From: Thermodesulfobacteriota bacterium
Lineage (GTDB): Bacteria > DASVDK01
Length of the DNA: 57,088 nt
Direction: 5' to 3'
Assembly: GCA_036381125.1 (NCBI GenBank)
Contig: DASVDK010000379.1
Location: forward strand, 1 to 57,088
In this document: positions 12,630 through 49,269 of the stretch, piece by piece
How positions within the stretch are numbered: the stretch's first letter is position 1
Layout of the letters: each line of letters starts with the position of its first letter
Notes under the pieces: generated by a model
Told to the model about the DNA's origin: nothing
What the model saw: only the letters and a program-made list of their open reading frames with translations
Database searches by the model: none
Translations under genes and position numbers: made by a program

Positions 12630-12661
12630 GAGCGCTGCTGCGAGCAAGTACCGTGCCGCGC

Positions 12662-14014: not shown

Positions 14015-14060
14015 CCTGCCCCCCTCCCTTGCCGGACGGGCCAGCAAGAGGCGTGCCCCA

Positions 14061-20563: not shown

Positions 20564-21199
20564 CTAGAACAGGCTCTGCGGCACCATGATGGTGTCGTCG
20601 CGCTGCAGGAGGATGTTCTGCCGGTCGTCGCCCGCGAGCAGGTCGTTGTAGCGGATGCCGATCCGCATGAGCCGCCCGTCGGGTCCCTTGCGGAGCACGA
20701 CCATCCGGTTGGGGGCCGCGAAGGGCGTCAGGCCGCCGGCGAGCGCGATCGCCTCGAGCACCGAGACGCGCCGCTTCACCTCGATCACGCCGGGCTTCTG
20801 CACCTGGCCGAGGACGTTGACCTTGAGGCTGTTGATCTCCTTGACCGCCACCGTCACGGCCGGCGCGGTGACGTACTCCTTCAACCGCCTGGCGATCTCG
20901 TCGCGCAGCTCGACCGCCGTGAGGCCGGCCGCCTGGATGTCGTTGAGGAGCGGAAGCGAGATCTTGCCGTCGGGGCGGACCGGCACCTCACCGGAGAGCT
21001 GCTCGTTGCGCCAGACGGTGATGTGCAGGACGTCGGCCGGGCCGATGCGGTATTCGTCGAGCGCCGCCGCGGTCGCCGGGACGGCGGCGCCGACGGTCCC
21101 GCGGTCGGCGCCGGCCGGTCCGGTCGTCCCGCACCCCGCGAGCGCGGGGACGACGACTGCCGCGAGAACGAGGGATACGTGCCACCTTGGCTGCCGCAT
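20564..21199 (-). CDS. polysaccharide export lipoprotein (short Wza/EpsA-like)
   Basis: C-terminal 211 codons of ORF 20564..22687, from ATG 21199. Lipobox VPALAGC. YRIGPADVLHITVW (Poly_export motif) followed by an SLBB-like domain. Confidence 0.85.
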   Translation of the reverse strand: MRQPRWHVSLVLAAVVVPALAGCGTTGPAGADRGTVGAAVPATAAALDEYRIGPADVLHITVWRNEQLSGEVPVRPDGKISLPLLNDIQAAGLTAVELRDEIARRLKEYVTAPAVTVAVKEINSLKVNVLGQVQKPGVIEVKRRVSVLEAIALAGGLTPFAAPNRMVVLRKGPDGRLMRIGIRYNDLLAGDDRQNILLQRDDTIMVPQSLF

Positions 21200-21303
21200 C
21201 GTCACGCGCCTCCACCGGCTCGCCGCCGGCATCGACTCCGGGCTCCCGCGTCCGTGAGGCGGCCGCCGCACGCCCCGACGGCCCCCCGCGGTCGGTCGTT
21301 TCG

Positions 21304-22734
21304 TCAGGCCGGGTGCCGGTCGAGTTCGTTCTCCTTGATCTTGTAGAGGAGCGCCTTGTAGGAGATCTGGAGGATCTCCGCGGCCTCTTTCCGGTTCCAC
21401 CGCGTCCAGTTGAGCACCTGCGAGATGACCTCCCGCTCCGCCTTGCGCGCGGCTTCCCGGCCGACGTCCTTCAGCGACACCGGCCGATCGCCGTCGGCCT
21501 CGATCGGCGTTTCGGCCGCCACGCTGGCGGCCGCCGCGACCGCCTGCGCCTCGGGCTCGATCTCGCGGCTGCGCAGGGCGAACTCCGTGTGGATGGCCGA
21601 CTCGTTGCCGAGGACCACCGCTCGCTTGATCATGTTCTCGAGCTCGCGCACGTTGCCCGGCCAGTGGTAGGTCATGAACCGCCGCATCGTCTCCTCGGTG
21701 AGCGGACGATAGGGCCGGTTGTACTGCCGCGAGTAGCGGGTCAGGAAGTGGTCCACCAGCAGCGGGATCTCGTCGCGCCGCTCGCGCAGGGGCGGCAGCG
21801 TGACGCTGACCACGTTCAGCCGGTAGTAGAGGTCCTCGCGAAAGTGCCCCTCGCGGACCGCCTTCTGGAGGTCGCGGTTGGTGGCGGCCAGCACCCGAAC
21901 GTCCACCGAGACGTCCCCCTCGCCGCCGAGGCGCGAGAACTCCCCGTCCTGGAGGACCTGCAGGAGCTTCGCCTGCAGCGCGGGGTGCATCTCGCTGATC
22001 TCGTCGAGGAAGATCGTGCCGTGGTTGGCCAGCTCGAACTTCCCCTGCTTGCGGAGGTTCGCCCCGGTGAACGCGCCCCGCTCGTAGCCGAACAGCTCGC
22101 TCTCGAGGAGCTGCTCGGGGAGCGCCGCGCAGTTGATCTTGACGAACGGCTTGTCCCGCCGGTGGGACTCCTGGAAGAGGGTCCGGGCGACCACCTCCTT
22201 CCCGGTCCCGCTCTCGCCCCGGATGAGGACGGTCACGTCCGTCTTCGCCACCTGGTCGATCATCTGACGGACGTGGTGCATCCGCTCGTTCTCGCCGAAG
22301 AGCAACTGGTAGCTCGTCTGCTCCTGGATCTGCTCCTTGAGCGAGCGGACCTCGGACGCCAGCTCGAGCCGGTCGAGGACCTTCGTGATCGTGAAGTTCA
22401 GCTCCTCCGGGTCGAACGGCTTGTTGAGGAAGTCGTTCGCCCCGAGCTTCATCGCCTTGACGATCGTCTGCGCCCGGCCGTGCGCCGACAGCATGATCAC
22501 CGACACGTCCGGCCGGACCGCCTTGATCTCCTCGAGCGTACGCAGGCCGTCCTTGCCCGGCATGAGCACGTCCAGCACGACCACGGTCGGCTTGAACGCC
22601 TGCACCTGGCGGACGGCGTCGTCTCCGTTCTGGACGCTGATGCAGTGGAACCCGTACTGGGCGAGCAGCGTCCGCAGGTAGTTGCACATGGACGGCTCGT
22701 CGTCCACGACGAGCACTCGGGTCTTCTCGGCCAA
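21304..22734 (-). CDS. sigma-54-dependent response regulator (NtrC family EBP; PrsR-like), copy 1
   Basis: ORF 21304..22950. Receiver domain (RVLVVDDE, VVLDVLMPGKDG), AAA+ domain (VLIRGESGTGKE, GAFTGA, ESELFGY, FLDEI), and a C-terminal Fis-type HTH (NRKEAAEILQISYKALLYKIKE). The start is uncertain: TTG 22734 (after AAGGGGGGG) or GTG 22749. Confidence 0.9.
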   Translation of the reverse strand: MAEKTRVLVVDDEPSMCNYLRTLLAQYGFHCISVQNGDDAVRQVQAFKPTVVVLDVLMPGKDGLRTLEEIKAVRPDVSVIMLSAHGRAQTIVKAMKLGANDFLNKPFDPEELNFTITKVLDRLELASEVRSLKEQIQEQTSYQLLFGENERMHHVRQMIDQVAKTDVTVLIRGESGTGKEVVARTLFQESHRRDKPFVKINCAALPEQLLESELFGYERGAFTGANLRKQGKFELANHGTIFLDEISEMHPALQAKLLQVLQDGEFSRLGGEGDVSVDVRVLAATNRDLQKAVREGHFREDLYYRLNVVSVTLPPLRERRDEIPLLVDHFLTRYSRQYNRPYRPLTEETMRRFMTYHWPGNVRELENMIKRAVVLGNESAIHTEFALRSREIEPEAQAVAAAASVAAETPIEADGDRPVSLKDVGREAARKAEREVISQVLNWTRWNRKEAAEILQISYKALLYKIKENELDRHPA

Positions 22735-22837
22735 TTCCCCCCCTTGCACGTGAGGCGCCGCTTGCCCGGAGGTCGCCCCGTCGAGGTGTGGTTCGCCAGC
22801 AGACCGGACAAGCGGCCTACGTTCCGCGTGACGTTGA

Positions 22838-22852
22838 GCAAGCGATGTGCCA
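22838..22852 (-). promoter_or_regulatory. candidate sigma-54 (RpoN) -24/-12 promoter
   Basis: The minus strand reads CTTGGCACATCGCTTGCTC, i.e. TGGCAC-N5-TTGC with canonical spacing, about 90-105 nt upstream of the EBP copy 1 start. Confidence 0.6.
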
Positions 22853-23056
22853 AGGGGATCTCGCCCCGCGGCGGCCGTGACGGCGCGCAAGGCAAACGCG
22901 CCCGCCCTCGTCGGATGCGGCGATTGGCCGCTTGACGCGGGGCCGAGCACGCGGTCGCGTCGATCGGGCTGTCGTGAGGATTGCCCTGCCGAGGGAAAAG
23001 ATTTGCCGCGGCAGGCAGCCGGTCGCAGAACCGGGAAGCGGTTCCGGCGTCGAGTC

Positions 23057-23072
23057 GTCAGGAGGGGGGCGG
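23057..23072. repeat. partial copy (GTCAGGAGGGGGGCGG) of the intergenic repeat
   Basis: 16-nt identity with the core of the two 36-bp repeats. It lies 73 bp upstream (plus-strand sense) of the next core. Confidence 0.7.
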
Positions 23073-23116
23073 GCCATCGGTTGCCTGATCGCCCCGCGAA
23101 GCCTTCGGCTTCGTGG

Positions 23117-23152
23117 GAATGGGGAGGTTGTCAGGAGGGGGGCGGAGCGTCG
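23117..23152. repeat. 36-bp direct repeat, copy A (GAATGGGGAGGTTGTCAGGAGGGGGGCGGAGCGTCG)
   Basis: Identical to 23219..23254, 102 bp away. Non-coding region between the two EBP genes. Confidence 0.9.
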
Positions 23153-23218
23153 GCCACGGAGACACCGGCGGCGCCTCTGGAGCGAAGGCCGGACTTGCTC
23201 CGGCCGGAGCGATTGAGA

Positions 23219-23254
23219 GAATGGGGAGGTTGTCAGGAGGGGGGCGGAGCGTCG
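23219..23254. repeat. 36-bp direct repeat, copy B
   Basis: Perfect copy of 23117..23152. Confidence 0.9.
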
Positions 23255-23285
23255 ATGAGAGACAGCGCGGAGTCCCCCTCCTGAC
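23232..23285 (-). terminator. 12-bp GC-rich inverted repeat directly after the EBP copy 2 stop (hairpin, possible terminator or insulator)
   Basis: GTCAGGAGGGGG (23232-23243) pairs with CCCCCTCCTGAC (23274-23285) across a 30-nt loop. It starts 3 nt after the TAG at 23288-23290. There is no clear U-tract. Confidence 0.3.
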
Positions 23286-23287
23286 TC

Positions 23288-24757
23288 CTATCGCCCGCCG
23301 TTCACGATCCCGCTTTCCTTGATCTTGTAGAGGAGCGCCTTGTAGGAGATGTTCAGGATCTTGGCGGCCTTCTTCCGGTTCCAGTTGGTCTGGTTGAGGA
23401 CGCGCTGGATGATCTCCTTCTCGGCCTCGAGCGCCGCCTTCTTCGTGATCTCCTTGAGCGAGATCGCCTGCGGTCCGGCGGGGCGCCCCTGGCCGTCGAC
23501 CGCCACGCCGACCGCCGGGACCGGGGCCGCCGGCACGGGAGCGCCGGCGCTCGCCGAGGCGGCGGCCGCCGCCTGACGCGCCGCGTTGATCGAGGCGTTC
23601 AGCTCGGCCACGACGGACGCCTGGTCCTCGAGGACGACGATGCGCTTGATCATGTTCTCGAGCTCGCGCACGTTGCCGGGCCACTCGTGCGTCATGAAGA
23701 GGCCCATGAGGTTCTCGGGCACCTGCGCGATGTTCTTGTTGAACTTCTTGTTGTACTTCTCGAGGAAGTACTCGCAGAGGATCGGGATCTCCTCCTTGCG
23801 CTCGCGCAGCGCCGGGACGTAGATGCTGACGACGTTGAGCCGATAGTACAGGTCCTCGCGGAACCGCCCCTCCTTCACCATCAGCTCGAGGTCCTTGTTC
23901 GTCGCCGCGACGACCCGCACGTCGACCTGGATGTCGCGCTTGCCGCCGAGCCGCGAGAACTCCCCGTCCTGGAGGACCTGCAGGAGCTTCGCCTGGAGCG
24001 GCGGCGACATCTCGGCGATCTCGTCGAGGAAGATGGTCCCCTCGTTGGCCAGCTCGAACTTGCCCGGCTTCTGCTTGAAGGCGCCGGTGAAGGCCCCCTT
24101 CTCGAAGCCGAACAGCTCGCTCTCGAGCAGCTCCTCCGGCAGCGCGGCGCAGTTCACCTTGATGAACGGCTTTTTCGCGCGGAGCGAGTTGAAGTGGATC
24201 GACCGGGAGACGATCTCCTTGCCGACGCCGCTCTCGCCGCGGATGAGGACGGTCACGTCGGTCGGCGCGACCTGCTCGATGATGTCCTTGACCTTGTTCA
24301 TCTTGTCGGAGACGGAGAGGAAGTACCCCTCCTTCCGCTTGACGTCGAGCTGGGTCTTGAGGCTCTTCAGCTCCTGGACGAGCTTGTTCTTCTCGAGGAC
24401 GGAGTTCATGGCGAAGTCCAGCTCCTCCTCCTCGAACGGCTTGGTGAGGTAGTCGGAGGCGCCGAGCTTCATGGCCTTGACGATGGTGCCGGTCTCTCCC
24501 ACCCCGGTCAGCATGATGACCGGGGTCTGCCGCGCGATCTTCCGGATGCGGCCGAGCACCTCGAGCCCGTCCATCTTCGGGAGCATGATGTCGAGGATGA
24601 TCAGCGAGAAGGTCGCCCCCTCCGAGAGGCGCTGCAGCGCCTCCTCACCGTCCTGGGCAAGGACGACGTCGAATCCCTTGAGCGTGAGGAGCGACTTCAG
24701 GTACTGGCGGATGTTCTCTTCGTCGTCCACCACGAGGATGGGCGGCAGGCGAGTCAT
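23288..24757 (-). CDS. sigma-54-dependent response regulator (NtrC family EBP), copy 2
   Basis: ORF 23288..24844. ATG 24757 is preceded by GGGAGGGAAGG. MTRLPPILVVDDE, LIILDIMLPKMDG, VLIRGESGVGKE, GAFTGA, and the C-terminal HTH NRKKAAKILNISYKALLYKIKE. By eye it looks roughly two-thirds identical to copy 1 (not computed). Confidence 0.9.
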   Translation of the reverse strand: MTRLPPILVVDDEENIRQYLKSLLTLKGFDVVLAQDGEEALQRLSEGATFSLIILDIMLPKMDGLEVLGRIRKIARQTPVIMLTGVGETGTIVKAMKLGASDYLTKPFEEEELDFAMNSVLEKNKLVQELKSLKTQLDVKRKEGYFLSVSDKMNKVKDIIEQVAPTDVTVLIRGESGVGKEIVSRSIHFNSLRAKKPFIKVNCAALPEELLESELFGFEKGAFTGAFKQKPGKFELANEGTIFLDEIAEMSPPLQAKLLQVLQDGEFSRLGGKRDIQVDVRVVAATNKDLELMVKEGRFREDLYYRLNVVSIYVPALRERKEEIPILCEYFLEKYNKKFNKNIAQVPENLMGLFMTHEWPGNVRELENMIKRIVVLEDQASVVAELNASINAARQAAAAASASAGAPVPAAPVPAVGVAVDGQGRPAGPQAISLKEITKKAALEAEKEIIQRVLNQTNWNRKKAAKILNISYKALLYKIKESGIVNGGR

Positions 24758-24788
24758 GTGCGGCCTTCCCTCCCAGGAATCGGGGGAG

Positions 24789-24817
24789 AGAGTATCAGAT
24801 TTCCCCGGGGGGGACAA
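24789..24817 (-). promoter_or_regulatory. weak sigma-70-like promoter candidate for EBP copy 2
   Basis: The minus strand reads TTGTCC, a 17-nt spacer, then TACTCT, about 30 nt upstream of ATG 24757. Based on the motif match only. Confidence 0.25.
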
Positions 24818-24918
24818 GCTGGCCCGAAACGGGAGGGTAATCACTTTCCTCTCCTCGGCCCAGGATCAGGCCATGCGACCCGAATCAGCCTCGGGAGAGG
24901 AAGCGGGTGGGCGTGCGA

Positions 24919-25233
24919 TTACTCTTCGTCGGCGTCGCCGGCCCCGTCGGGGGCCTTACCGTCGTTCACGCGCTCCTTCAGCTCCTTGCCGACCTTGAAG
25001 AAGGGGATCGTCTTCGCCTTGACCTCGATGGCCGCGCCGGTCTTGGGGTTGCGGCCGACGTACGGCTCGTAGCGCTTGTTGACGAACGACCCGAACCCCC
25101 GGATCTCGATGCGCCGGTTCCTGACGAGGGCCTCCGTCATCGCGTCGAAGATGGCGTTGACGACCTCCTCCGCCTTGTTGAGCGGAAGCTCCGCCCGGGC
25201 CGCGAGCACCTCCACAAGCTCCGACTTGTTCAT
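24919..25233 (-). CDS. ihfB: integration host factor beta subunit-like (HU/IHF family)
   Basis: ORF 24919..25233. MNKSELVEVLA, RIEIRGFGSF, GRNPKTG and FKVGKELKERVN closely follow the IHF-beta pattern. Confidence 0.85.
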   Translation of the reverse strand: MNKSELVEVLAARAELPLNKAEEVVNAIFDAMTEALVRNRRIEIRGFGSFVNKRYEPYVGRNPKTGAAIEVKAKTIPFFKVGKELKERVNDGKAPDGAGDADEE

Positions 25234-40109: not shown

Positions 40110-40186
40110 TGGTGCCCCTGGCCGGAATCGAACCGACGGCACGCGGTTTAGGAAACCGCTGCTCTATCCAACTGAGCTACAGGGGC
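40110..40186 (-). tRNA. tRNA-Arg (anticodon CCT), CCA encoded
   Basis: The reverse complement is GCCCCTGTAGCTCAGTTGGATAGAGCAGCGGTTTCCTAAACCGCGTGCCGTCGGTTCGATTCCGGCCAGGGGCACCA. All four stems pair, and the anticodon loop is TTCCTAA. Confidence 0.95.
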
Positions 40187-41547: not shown

Positions 41548-41624
41548 TGGTCGGGGCGCCGGGATTTGAACCCGGGACCCCTGGCCCCCCATGCCAGTGC
41601 GCTACCAGGCTGCGCTACGCCCCG
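41548..41624 (-). tRNA. tRNA-Pro (anticodon GGG), CCA encoded
   Basis: The reverse complement is CGGGGCGTAGCGCAGCCTGGTAGCGCACTGGCATGGGGGGCCAGGGGTCCCGGGTTCAAATCCCGGCGCCCCGACCA. The cloverleaf pairs fully, and the anticodon loop is ATGGGGG. Confidence 0.95.
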
Positions 41625-49192: not shown

Positions 49193-49269
49193 TGGTGGGC
49201 GCTGCTGGAATCGAACCAGCGACCTCTACCATGTCAAAGTAGCACTCTAACCAACTGAGCTAAGCGCCC
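49193..49269 (-). tRNA. tRNA-Val (anticodon GAC), CCA encoded
   Basis: The reverse complement is GGGCGCTTAGCTCAGTTGGTTAGAGTGCTACTTTGACATGGTAGAGGTCGCTGGTTCGATTCCAGCAGCGCCCACCA. The anticodon loop is TTGACAT. Confidence 0.95.

Follow-up and report, generated by a model that had tools for sequence, protein, structure and literature searches.

What are the repeats that fill the spacer between two neighbouring activator genes in a contig of an uncultivated, high-GC soil lineage of Thermodesulfobacteriota? The stretch analysed here (contig DASVDK010000379.1 of assembly GCA_036381125.1, 57,088 nt, 73 % G+C; hereafter the window) carries two genes for NtrC-type enhancer-binding proteins, EBP2 and EBP1, separated by a spacer with several related repeats. 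The initial annotation read these repeats as upstream activating sequence (UAS) sites of sigma-54 activators, with a terminator or insulator hairpin as an alternative or additional role. The cluster instead turns out to be one member of a family of modular extragenic repeats that form hairpins and are scattered over unrelated loci. In our assessment it is most probably the resident copy of a mosaic family of the repetitive extragenic palindrome (REP)/bacterial interspersed mosaic element (BIME) type, which at this locus would also serve as a barrier at the 3' end of the EBP2 message.

The repeat cluster is far beyond chance

The repeat cluster is real and lies far beyond chance expectation. 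Repeat and pattern searches of the window recovered two 36-mers (GAATGGGGAGGTTGTCAGGAGGGGGGCGGAGCGTCG) that are 100 % identical, the 16-nt core of a partial copy (GTCAGGAGGGGGGCGG) and an inverted 12-mer (CCCCCTCCTGAC, 23274-23285) complementary to all three direct copies. The start-to-start spacings of 73 and 102 nt were reproduced as well. In the full 36-nt register the partial copy extends over 23044-23079 with 64 % identity. With up to three mismatches allowed, the 36-mer has two matches in the window (0.00 expected); with up to one, the 12-mer has four (0.95 expected), all of them exact and inside 229 bp. Pattern searches found no further copy of the repeat anywhere else in the window. 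The region was rightly taken to be non-coding: no high-GC3 (third codon position G+C) frame covers it apart from an upstream extension of the EBP1 frame.

A dispersed family in a related genome

The exact 19-mer of the C-rich repeat arm (CCCTCCTGACAACCTCCCC) was used as a query against one genome per species of bacteria and archaea. Nine loci were retrieved, seven on contigs of a single metagenome-assembled genome (MAG), Thermodesulfobacteriota bacterium SMAG_U7102 (soil, 73 % GC), and two in unrelated records. The seven MAG copies all have the same head with its parts in the same order: a G-rich arm, a long or a short loop, a C-rich arm, AACCTCCCC, a second hairpin (H2) and TCCGCTCCAGA. Their tails vary, consisting either of a third hairpin and a second C arm or of another tail type. 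According to blastn, window positions 23129-23288 are 92.5 % identical to the copy at locus L014 and 90 % identical to that at L007 (160 nt), and the L015 copy aligns with 91 % identity (124 nt); the same comparison of the window with the fetched MAG loci detected no shared single-copy region. An alignment of ten loci shows shared modules (the first hairpin H1, AACCTCCCC, H2, the third hairpin and extra C arms) whose combinations and numbers differ from site to site. The G arm is inverted relative to the last C arm, and array length ranges from ~90 to >400 nt. Metagenome scans with the 19-mer gave low-GC, chance-level matches only, and scans of viral sequences gave no match.

All eight independent loci are located between genes. 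Neighbours of the MAG copies include genes for a carboxyl transferase, Ldh_2, a periplasmic binding protein/TatC, DUF1207/DctM, RNase E/G, the large and small subunits of an aconitase-family enzyme, and PilZ. In every evaluable independent locus (7/7), a coding-sequence boundary is found within 0-5 nt of the G-arm end. At five of them (the window lineage, L007, L011, L012 and L015) the boundary is the stop codon of an upstream gene that runs in the same direction as the element; the remaining two copies are inverted and adjoin start codons, one at RNase E/G (L013) and one in the gap between the two aconitase-family subunit genes (L014). The inverted element at L013:521-528 ends 4 nt before the RNase E/G ATG, which leaves no room for a Shine-Dalgarno sequence, and the one at L014:3166-3180 stops immediately ahead of a LeuD-like gene that has no canonical start codon in its vicinity; such copies may supply or occlude translation-initiation signals. 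A TA target or target-site duplication was considered and dropped, since the TAG that flanks the G arm merely ends the upstream gene as its stop codon and is not present at L011 or L014.

The two unrelated organisms retrieved with the 19-mer possess the matching upstream arm as well, and so a similar hairpin, namely at L009:2576-2625 (a Clostridiales MAG) and at L016:1321-1354 and L016:10453-10480 (a freshwater contig of 51 % GC). Their layout is GTCAGGAGG(GG)-loop-CCCTCCTGAC-AACCTCCCC, and the second L016 hairpin, 9 kb away, is followed by a T-run. Rfam has no match for these hairpins, and the likeness could reflect convergence of GGAGG/CCTCC-rich terminator hairpins or something shared.

The confinement of the motif to one site within the window would suit a tandem duplication by slippage, or a chance pattern, specific to this locus and without a wider family. 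Seven near-identical composite copies on other contigs of the related MAG argue against this, as do H2-type modules in a second spacer of the orthologous locus L003 (see below). Since the MAG copies were found, we regard this explanation as already refuted and hardly credible.

Anatomy of the element and predicted folding

In the direction of transcription (minus strand), the EBP2 stop codon gives way to the G arm, a loop and C arm 1, which together form H1, and then to AACCTCCCC, H2, a small third hairpin, C arm 2, again AACCTCCCC, a different hairpin and C arm 3 (Table 1). The element is locally expanded to ~250 nt. What had been described as direct copies are thus the successive C-rich arms, and the inverted 12-mer is the single G-rich arm. 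An arm of the form GAGTCA(G/A)GAGGGGG heads every copy in the family. Short-form copies elsewhere have only GCTCCG in place of the H1 loop, and the third-hairpin module recurs in L007, L014 and L015 as CAGACGCACCGCCGGTGTCTCCG. We rejected a plus-strand micro-ORF in the H1 loop (GGAG-N5-ATG, translated as MRDSAESPS*): its ATG is kept in L014 and L007 and absent in L011 and L012, and the short-form copies are without the whole loop.

Table 1. Features of the repeat element and of its immediate surroundings in the window.
Feature	Position	Strand	Remarks
IHF/HU-family gene	24919-25233	-	
EBP2	23288-24757	-	NtrC-type activator (NtrC-family response regulator)
G-rich 5' arm of hairpin H1, GAGTCAGGAGGGGG	23274-23287	-	core begins 2 nt past the EBP2 stop
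H1 long-form loop, ACTCCGCGCTGTCTCTCATCGACGCTCCG	23245-23273	-	holds a small inner stem; differs by 1 nt from the loop of the L014 paralog
36-mer copy A	23219-23254	-	end of H1 loop, C arm 1 and single-stranded tail AACCTCCCCATTC
C-rich arm 1, CCCCCCTCCTGAC	23232-23244	-	pairs with the G arm; followed by AACCTCCCC, then ATTCTCTCAA
Hairpin H2, GGCCGGAGCAAGTCCGGCC	23187-23205	-	conserved flanks TCGCTCC and TTCGCTCCAGA
Third small hairpin, CAGAGGCGCCGCCGGTGTCTCCG (spacer stretch GGCGCCGCCGGTGTCTCCG)	23157-23179	-	between H2 and C arm 2
36-mer copy B	23117-23152	-	C arm 2 and AACCTCCCCATTC; opens a second unit without a G-rich partner of its own
Unit-2 hairpin, CCCACGAAGCCGAAGGCTTCGCGGGG (spacer stretch GAAGCCGAAGGCTTC)	23092-23117	-	in the place of H2; -17.4 kcal/mol
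C-rich arm 3, partial copy, CCGCCCCCCTCCTGAC	23057-23072	-	followed by a small GAACCG/CGGTTC hairpin
Array-expansion segment (unit 2 and arm 3)	23011-23171	-	32 nt instead in ortholog L001
Sigma-54 promoter, TGGCACATCGCTTGC	22838-22852	-	upstream of EBP1; context, outside the repeat element
EBP1	21304-22734	-	NtrC-type activator (NtrC-family response regulator), TTG start

The arms of H1 are inverted over 12-14 nt and enclose a loop of 5 nt or 30 nt that itself folds. The window H1, with 12 bp and an inner stem, has a predicted energy of about -31.5 kcal/mol, and the 33-nt short form GAGTCA(G/A)GAGGGGGGCTCCGCCCCCCTCCTGAC has one of -26 to -33 kcal/mol. Energies of single copies across the family range from -21 to -41 kcal/mol for H1 and from -16 to -20 kcal/mol for H2. 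A consensus fold of nine copies computed with RNAalifold contains 11 pairs in H1, the C arm of which is invariant, and 7 pairs in H2. Thirteen H2 modules were available (seven first units of the MAG, three from the window, L001 and L003, and three second units); the H2 region of L008 is weaker and divergent and adds no module to this count. Four H2 pairs still pair after changes on both sides, for example as GGCCGG/CCGGCC, GGGCGG/CCGCCC or GGCCCGG/CCGGGCC. As modelled, the folding signal resides in the individual hairpins.

Instability of the element among orthologous loci

The closest relatives of EBP2 (95, 94, 87 and 86 % identity) all come from metagenome assemblies, and the next ones have at most ~62 % identity. 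The contigs of these close relatives keep the same synteny. L001 and L003 preserve the sigma-54 promoter letter for letter, and L005 has TGGCACATGGATTGC in its place. All four lineages share an identical EBP1 helix-turn-helix; in the DNA-binding helix-turn-helix of EBP2 a single residue differs, in L005. Against this nearly constant background, the copy number of the element is unstable: there are three C arms in the window, two to three in L003, one in L001, and no recognisable copy in L005. The L001 copy consists of a single G arm, which carries an A·C mismatch, and a single C arm; in L003 the inner hairpin is a variant, and the C arms are spaced 94 nt apart. The blastn alignment between the window and L001, the lineage whose EBP2 is 95 % identical, ends at 23010 and restarts at 23172, so 161 nt with copy B and the partial copy are without a counterpart in L001. 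Copies in the MAG, which are paralogs, are closer to the window copy than the orthologous copies of L001 and L003.

A further array was observed in the spacer between EBP1 and the polysaccharide export gene of L003. This spacer measures 440 nt and holds three H2-type modules in inverted orientation (L003:9593-9829); the corresponding spacers of the window and L001 have only ~25-50 nt and are without such an array. The repeat family is therefore dynamic.

These differences bear on the possibility that the element is a purely selfish or neutral passenger, similar to REPINs or to miniature inverted-repeat transposable elements (MITEs), which sits in a permissive gap after EBP2 and uses its hairpins only for its own mobilisation as single-stranded DNA. 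Presence/absence and copy-number differences between close relatives, the new inverted array in L003, the occurrence of both orientations and the closeness of the MAG paralogs to the window copy all speak for such a passenger. However, a stem of -31 kcal/mol placed 2 nt past a stop codon would be unlikely to leave the transcript unaffected. In 7/7 loci, moreover, coding-sequence ends adjoin the G arm, which points to target preference or selection, and neither a target-site duplication nor a transposase came to light, no search aimed at the latter having been made. We consider this explanation possible, though clearly the less probable account of the cluster at this locus.

The enhancer reading

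The repeats had been placed at a distance typical of sigma-54 enhancers, and this much holds: the minus-strand -24/-12 motif is a perfect TGGCAC-N5-TTGC and is conserved, and the cluster lies 205-433 bp upstream of it, inside the UAS range of roughly 80-500 bp. Two genes for NtrC-family response regulators and an IHF/HU-family gene adjoin in conserved synteny, and C arms occur at the orthologous position in L001 and L003. A role of the repeats as UAS sites for one or both activators, assisted by IHF (integration host factor) and acting on the 22852-22838 promoter, nevertheless meets several obstacles. The repeat occurs in many unrelated intergenic regions of the close-relative MAG, an outcome that the initial annotation had itself named as refuting the enhancer role, and the seven other loci (~38 kb in total) contain no TGGCAC-N5-TTGC motif at up to one mismatch with GG/GC kept. 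The 102-bp spacing had been interpreted as about ten helical turns. It is exact in L007 and L014, together with the 42 nt from G arm to C arm 1, and is found again in L015; therefore it is a property of the element and not of the promoter. (An apparent third spacing of 73 nt in L014 was discarded as a two-mismatch match inside the second H2 module and does not replicate the 73 nt of the window.) The number of C arms falls from three to none among orthologs despite the conserved promoter and the constant or nearly constant helix-turn-helix segments. Dimers with Fis-type helix-turn-helix domains would call for dyads, as in the UAS of NtrC-family activators, and the arrangement seen here is one of direct repeats. 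Finally, the arm nearest EBP2 starts 2 nt past the stop codon, and its counterparts similarly follow the stops of unrelated genes. Judged by this distribution, the cluster is very probably not a binding-site array specific to the EBP1 and EBP2 activators. The enhancer role is very improbable, and it retains a small probability since co-option of resident repeats does occur.

Some 125-155 nt upstream of the -24 element, the spacer has its AT-richest block (GGCAAATCTTTTCCCTCGGCAGGGCAATCCTC, minus strand, 22976-23007), which L001 retains and L003 retains in part and which overlaps a terminator-like call at 23019-23005. This block appears to be the most obvious non-repeat candidate, and a better one than the repeats, for an IHF or activator site. 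A CTGCCG/CGGCAG dyad around it was rejected as a conserved enhancer-like feature, as it is not kept in L001.

Proposed role of the element

The family would have been spread or homogenised within genomes by transposition or gene conversion, as REP, REPIN and BIME elements are. At this locus the element would form the untranslated 3' end of the transcript from the IHF-like and EBP2 genes, where the very stable H1, followed by H2, may form a 3'-end barrier. Such a barrier could protect the upstream message from 3' exonucleases, block read-through into the sigma-54-driven EBP1/exopolysaccharide operon, or both. On the folding models, H1 and H2 together are thus probably a barrier or stabiliser that separates the EBP2 transcript from the EBP1 operon. 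In enterobacteria REP and BIME sequences stabilise upstream mRNA, attenuate transcription and bind nucleoid proteins. The H1 stem might also damp EBP2 termination or expression because it begins inside the ribosome footprint of the stop codon; REPs near stop codons in E. coli are reported to have such an effect, which we take as a lead only. The terminator or insulator hairpin suggested earlier survives in part: its stem is real, forms the conserved head of the family, lies directly downstream of EBP2 and follows the stop by 0-5 nt at five loci, but a U-tract is missing.

Several observations weigh against the combined interpretation of a dispersed REP/BIME-type family with a 3'-barrier role. 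Dispersal is seen in the close-relative MAG and in the L003 lineage, with a single occurrence in the 57 kb of the window, and the seven MAG contigs are the yield of an exact 19-mer search in a fragmentary assembly. No target-site duplication or common flanking direct repeat is evident in the flanks of the copies. The inversion of two of the seven loci argues against a strictly RNA-level, orientation-dependent function of the family. The 251-nt region folds only modestly better than shuffled sequences (z = -2.2 on the minus strand; the plus strand has -1.9). No U-tract stands behind H1 (its tail is AACCUCCCCAUUCUCUC), and the terminator scan does not call H1, its sole call in the spacer being the other, weak site at 23019-23005; with the U-tract missing, termination at H1 is no more than putative. 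Lastly, a remnant of the H2 3' flank (CCTTCGCT) persists in all four orthologs, so the element is long resident here and could have been co-opted. The H2 3' flank also contains the only 10-mer (CCTTCGCTCC, up to one mismatch) common to the four spacers upstream of the promoter.

The element might alternatively work as RNA in trans, or as a sponge. Its C arms (CCCCCCUCCUGACAACCUCCCC) contain two CCUCC motifs resembling anti-Shine-Dalgarno sequences and could act like small RNAs (sRNAs) derived from 3' untranslated regions (UTRs) that pair with ribosome-binding sites, comparable to C-rich anti-Shine-Dalgarno sRNAs in tandem arrays. Arms 2 and 3 of the window, which lack a G-rich partner, are predicted to be mostly unpaired; the C arm is preserved, whereas 5/10 copies show an A·C mismatch on the G-arm side, and the element is co-oriented with the upstream gene at 5/7 loci. 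However, part of the C-arm invariance is an effect of ascertainment, since an exact 19-mer from this arm served as the query for the copies; secondary C arms within arrays vary, and two loci are inverted. Nor does promoter or processing evidence, or an Rfam match, speak for such an RNA: Rfam 15 gave no gathering-score match in the window and just chance-level matches (E of at least 2.7) in 22600-23400. The idea of a known sRNA placed downstream of a sigma-54 activator gene, such as one of the Pxr type, was likewise rejected, as Rfam gathering and permissive scans were empty. We regard a trans-acting RNA as quite improbable.

A further reading, which we also hold to be unlikely if somewhat less so, is that the family is more than a generic REP. 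It would then be a modular element with a polar layout, its G-rich head placed no more than 5 nt from the ends of coding sequences (7/7) and its tail exposing one to several CCUCC-rich arms, and would be either a mobile element that targets gene termini or a co-opted 3'-UTR RNA module. In the latter case it would use its anti-Shine-Dalgarno-like arms to bind ribosomes or mRNAs, tune the neighbouring genes and, at this locus, couple EBP2 output to the EBP1/exopolysaccharide operon. Should the polar modular element be real, the hairpin and AACCTCCCC tail of L009 and L016 would reflect a convergent or shared function.

Genomic setting

On the minus strand, the gene order is the IHF/HU-family gene, EBP2, the spacer, EBP1, and a cluster for XrtA/PEP-CTERM exopolysaccharide export and biosynthesis. 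The stop codon of EBP2 (TAG) was confirmed at 23290-23288, as was the IHF/HU-family gene close by. The most likely start of EBP1 is the TTG at 22734, because the start called in L001 aligns with it, as does an in-frame ATG-Ala-Glu-Lys of L003; the L003 start chosen by the gene caller is 9 codons further upstream. With this start the spacer (22735-23287) is 553 nt long, not 538 nt as given before.

The module at 20564-25233 (IHF/HU-like gene, EBP2, sigma-54 promoter, EBP1 and XrtA/PEP-CTERM export genes) is conserved in L001, L003 and L005. EBP1 and EBP2 are ~70 % identical at the DNA level, and both are under the cut-off of the PEP-CTERM regulator model TIGR02915. Two more sigma-54-like -24/-12 motifs with one mismatch each were noticed on the minus strand inside the exopolysaccharide cluster, at 14044-14058 and 12644-12658 (GGGCACGCCTCTTGC and CGGCACGGTACTTGC), and are possible extra targets of EBP1 and EBP2. 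An Rfam scan located three minus-strand tRNA genes (40113-40186, 41551-41624 and 49196-49269), which are unrelated to the repeat cluster.

Significance

These results remove from the annotation a plausible-looking regulatory call that is very probably wrong. The repeats are unfit for defining the binding motif of the activators at this PEP-CTERM locus, and they are unlikely to be the true enhancer of the conserved sigma-54 promoter. They also document a REP/BIME-like family in an uncultivated high-GC soil lineage, where such repeats, which break metagenome assemblies and can pass for regulatory sites, are rarely catalogued. The docking of hairpins on stop codons is a general phenomenon already known, and this family offers a convenient case for studying effects on mRNA 3' ends and translation termination outside enterobacteria.

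Comparison with known systems

Like an intrinsic terminator, the element places a GC-rich stem-loop directly downstream of a stop codon, but it lacks a U-tract (AACCUCCCCAUUC follows the stem), has a 30-nt loop in the long form and is not called by the terminator scan. It resembles sigma-54 UAS arrays in its position upstream of a -24/-12 element and beside activator and IHF-like genes. Unlike them, it is not confined to sigma-54 promoters, is not dyad-symmetric, has its spacing set by the element itself, and is present in numbers that are not conserved among orthologs with the same DNA-binding helices.

MITE-like elements as generally known (Correia/NEMIS of Neisseria, ERIC/IRU of enterobacteria) are composite sequences of 100-250 nt with inverted ends, to which the G arm and the last C arm would correspond; they are also highly structured, are transcribed together with their neighbours, lie near gene ends in either orientation and can alter flanking expression. 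The present family differs in that neither its length nor its ends are fixed, its flanks show no target-site duplication, and it grows by tandem modules in place of unit insertion. Parallels are also found with the REPINs of Pseudomonas fluorescens that RAYT transposases mobilise (GI-GIII; PMC3337134, PMC3116915), which are extragenic hairpins with palindromic cores of G-runs and C-runs (the GI REP core is GGGGGCTTGCCCCC, compared with GGGGGGCTCCGCCCCCC in the window family). Both have a variable spacer or loop that still folds, complex arrangements, and vertical inheritance with turnover within genomes. A REPIN, however, is a doublet of two inverted REPs, whereas H1 appears to be a single palindrome with long-loop and short-loop forms.

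The REP class consists of short, GC-rich, hairpin-forming palindromes in extragenic space that also occur in complex arrangements (PMC3337134). The window family has a GC-rich hairpin palindrome of REP size (33 nt in its short form, REPs having about 20-40 nt), unrelated loci (in the related MAG), an extragenic location and mosaic clusters. As in the REPs and BIMEs of E. coli and other enterobacteria, imperfect GC-rich palindromes with stable hairpins occupy many unrelated extragenic sites, often just past stop codons or between convergent genes, and join further short motifs in mosaic arrays that are built differently from site to site and between close relatives. The sequences are unrelated, the host is an uncultivated soil lineage of 73 % GC, and the architecture is polar, with one gene-proximal G arm followed by several direct C arms where BIMEs alternate REP orientations. 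REP/BIME-type repeats are already known as a kind, and this particular sequence family in an uncultivated high-GC soil lineage is new.

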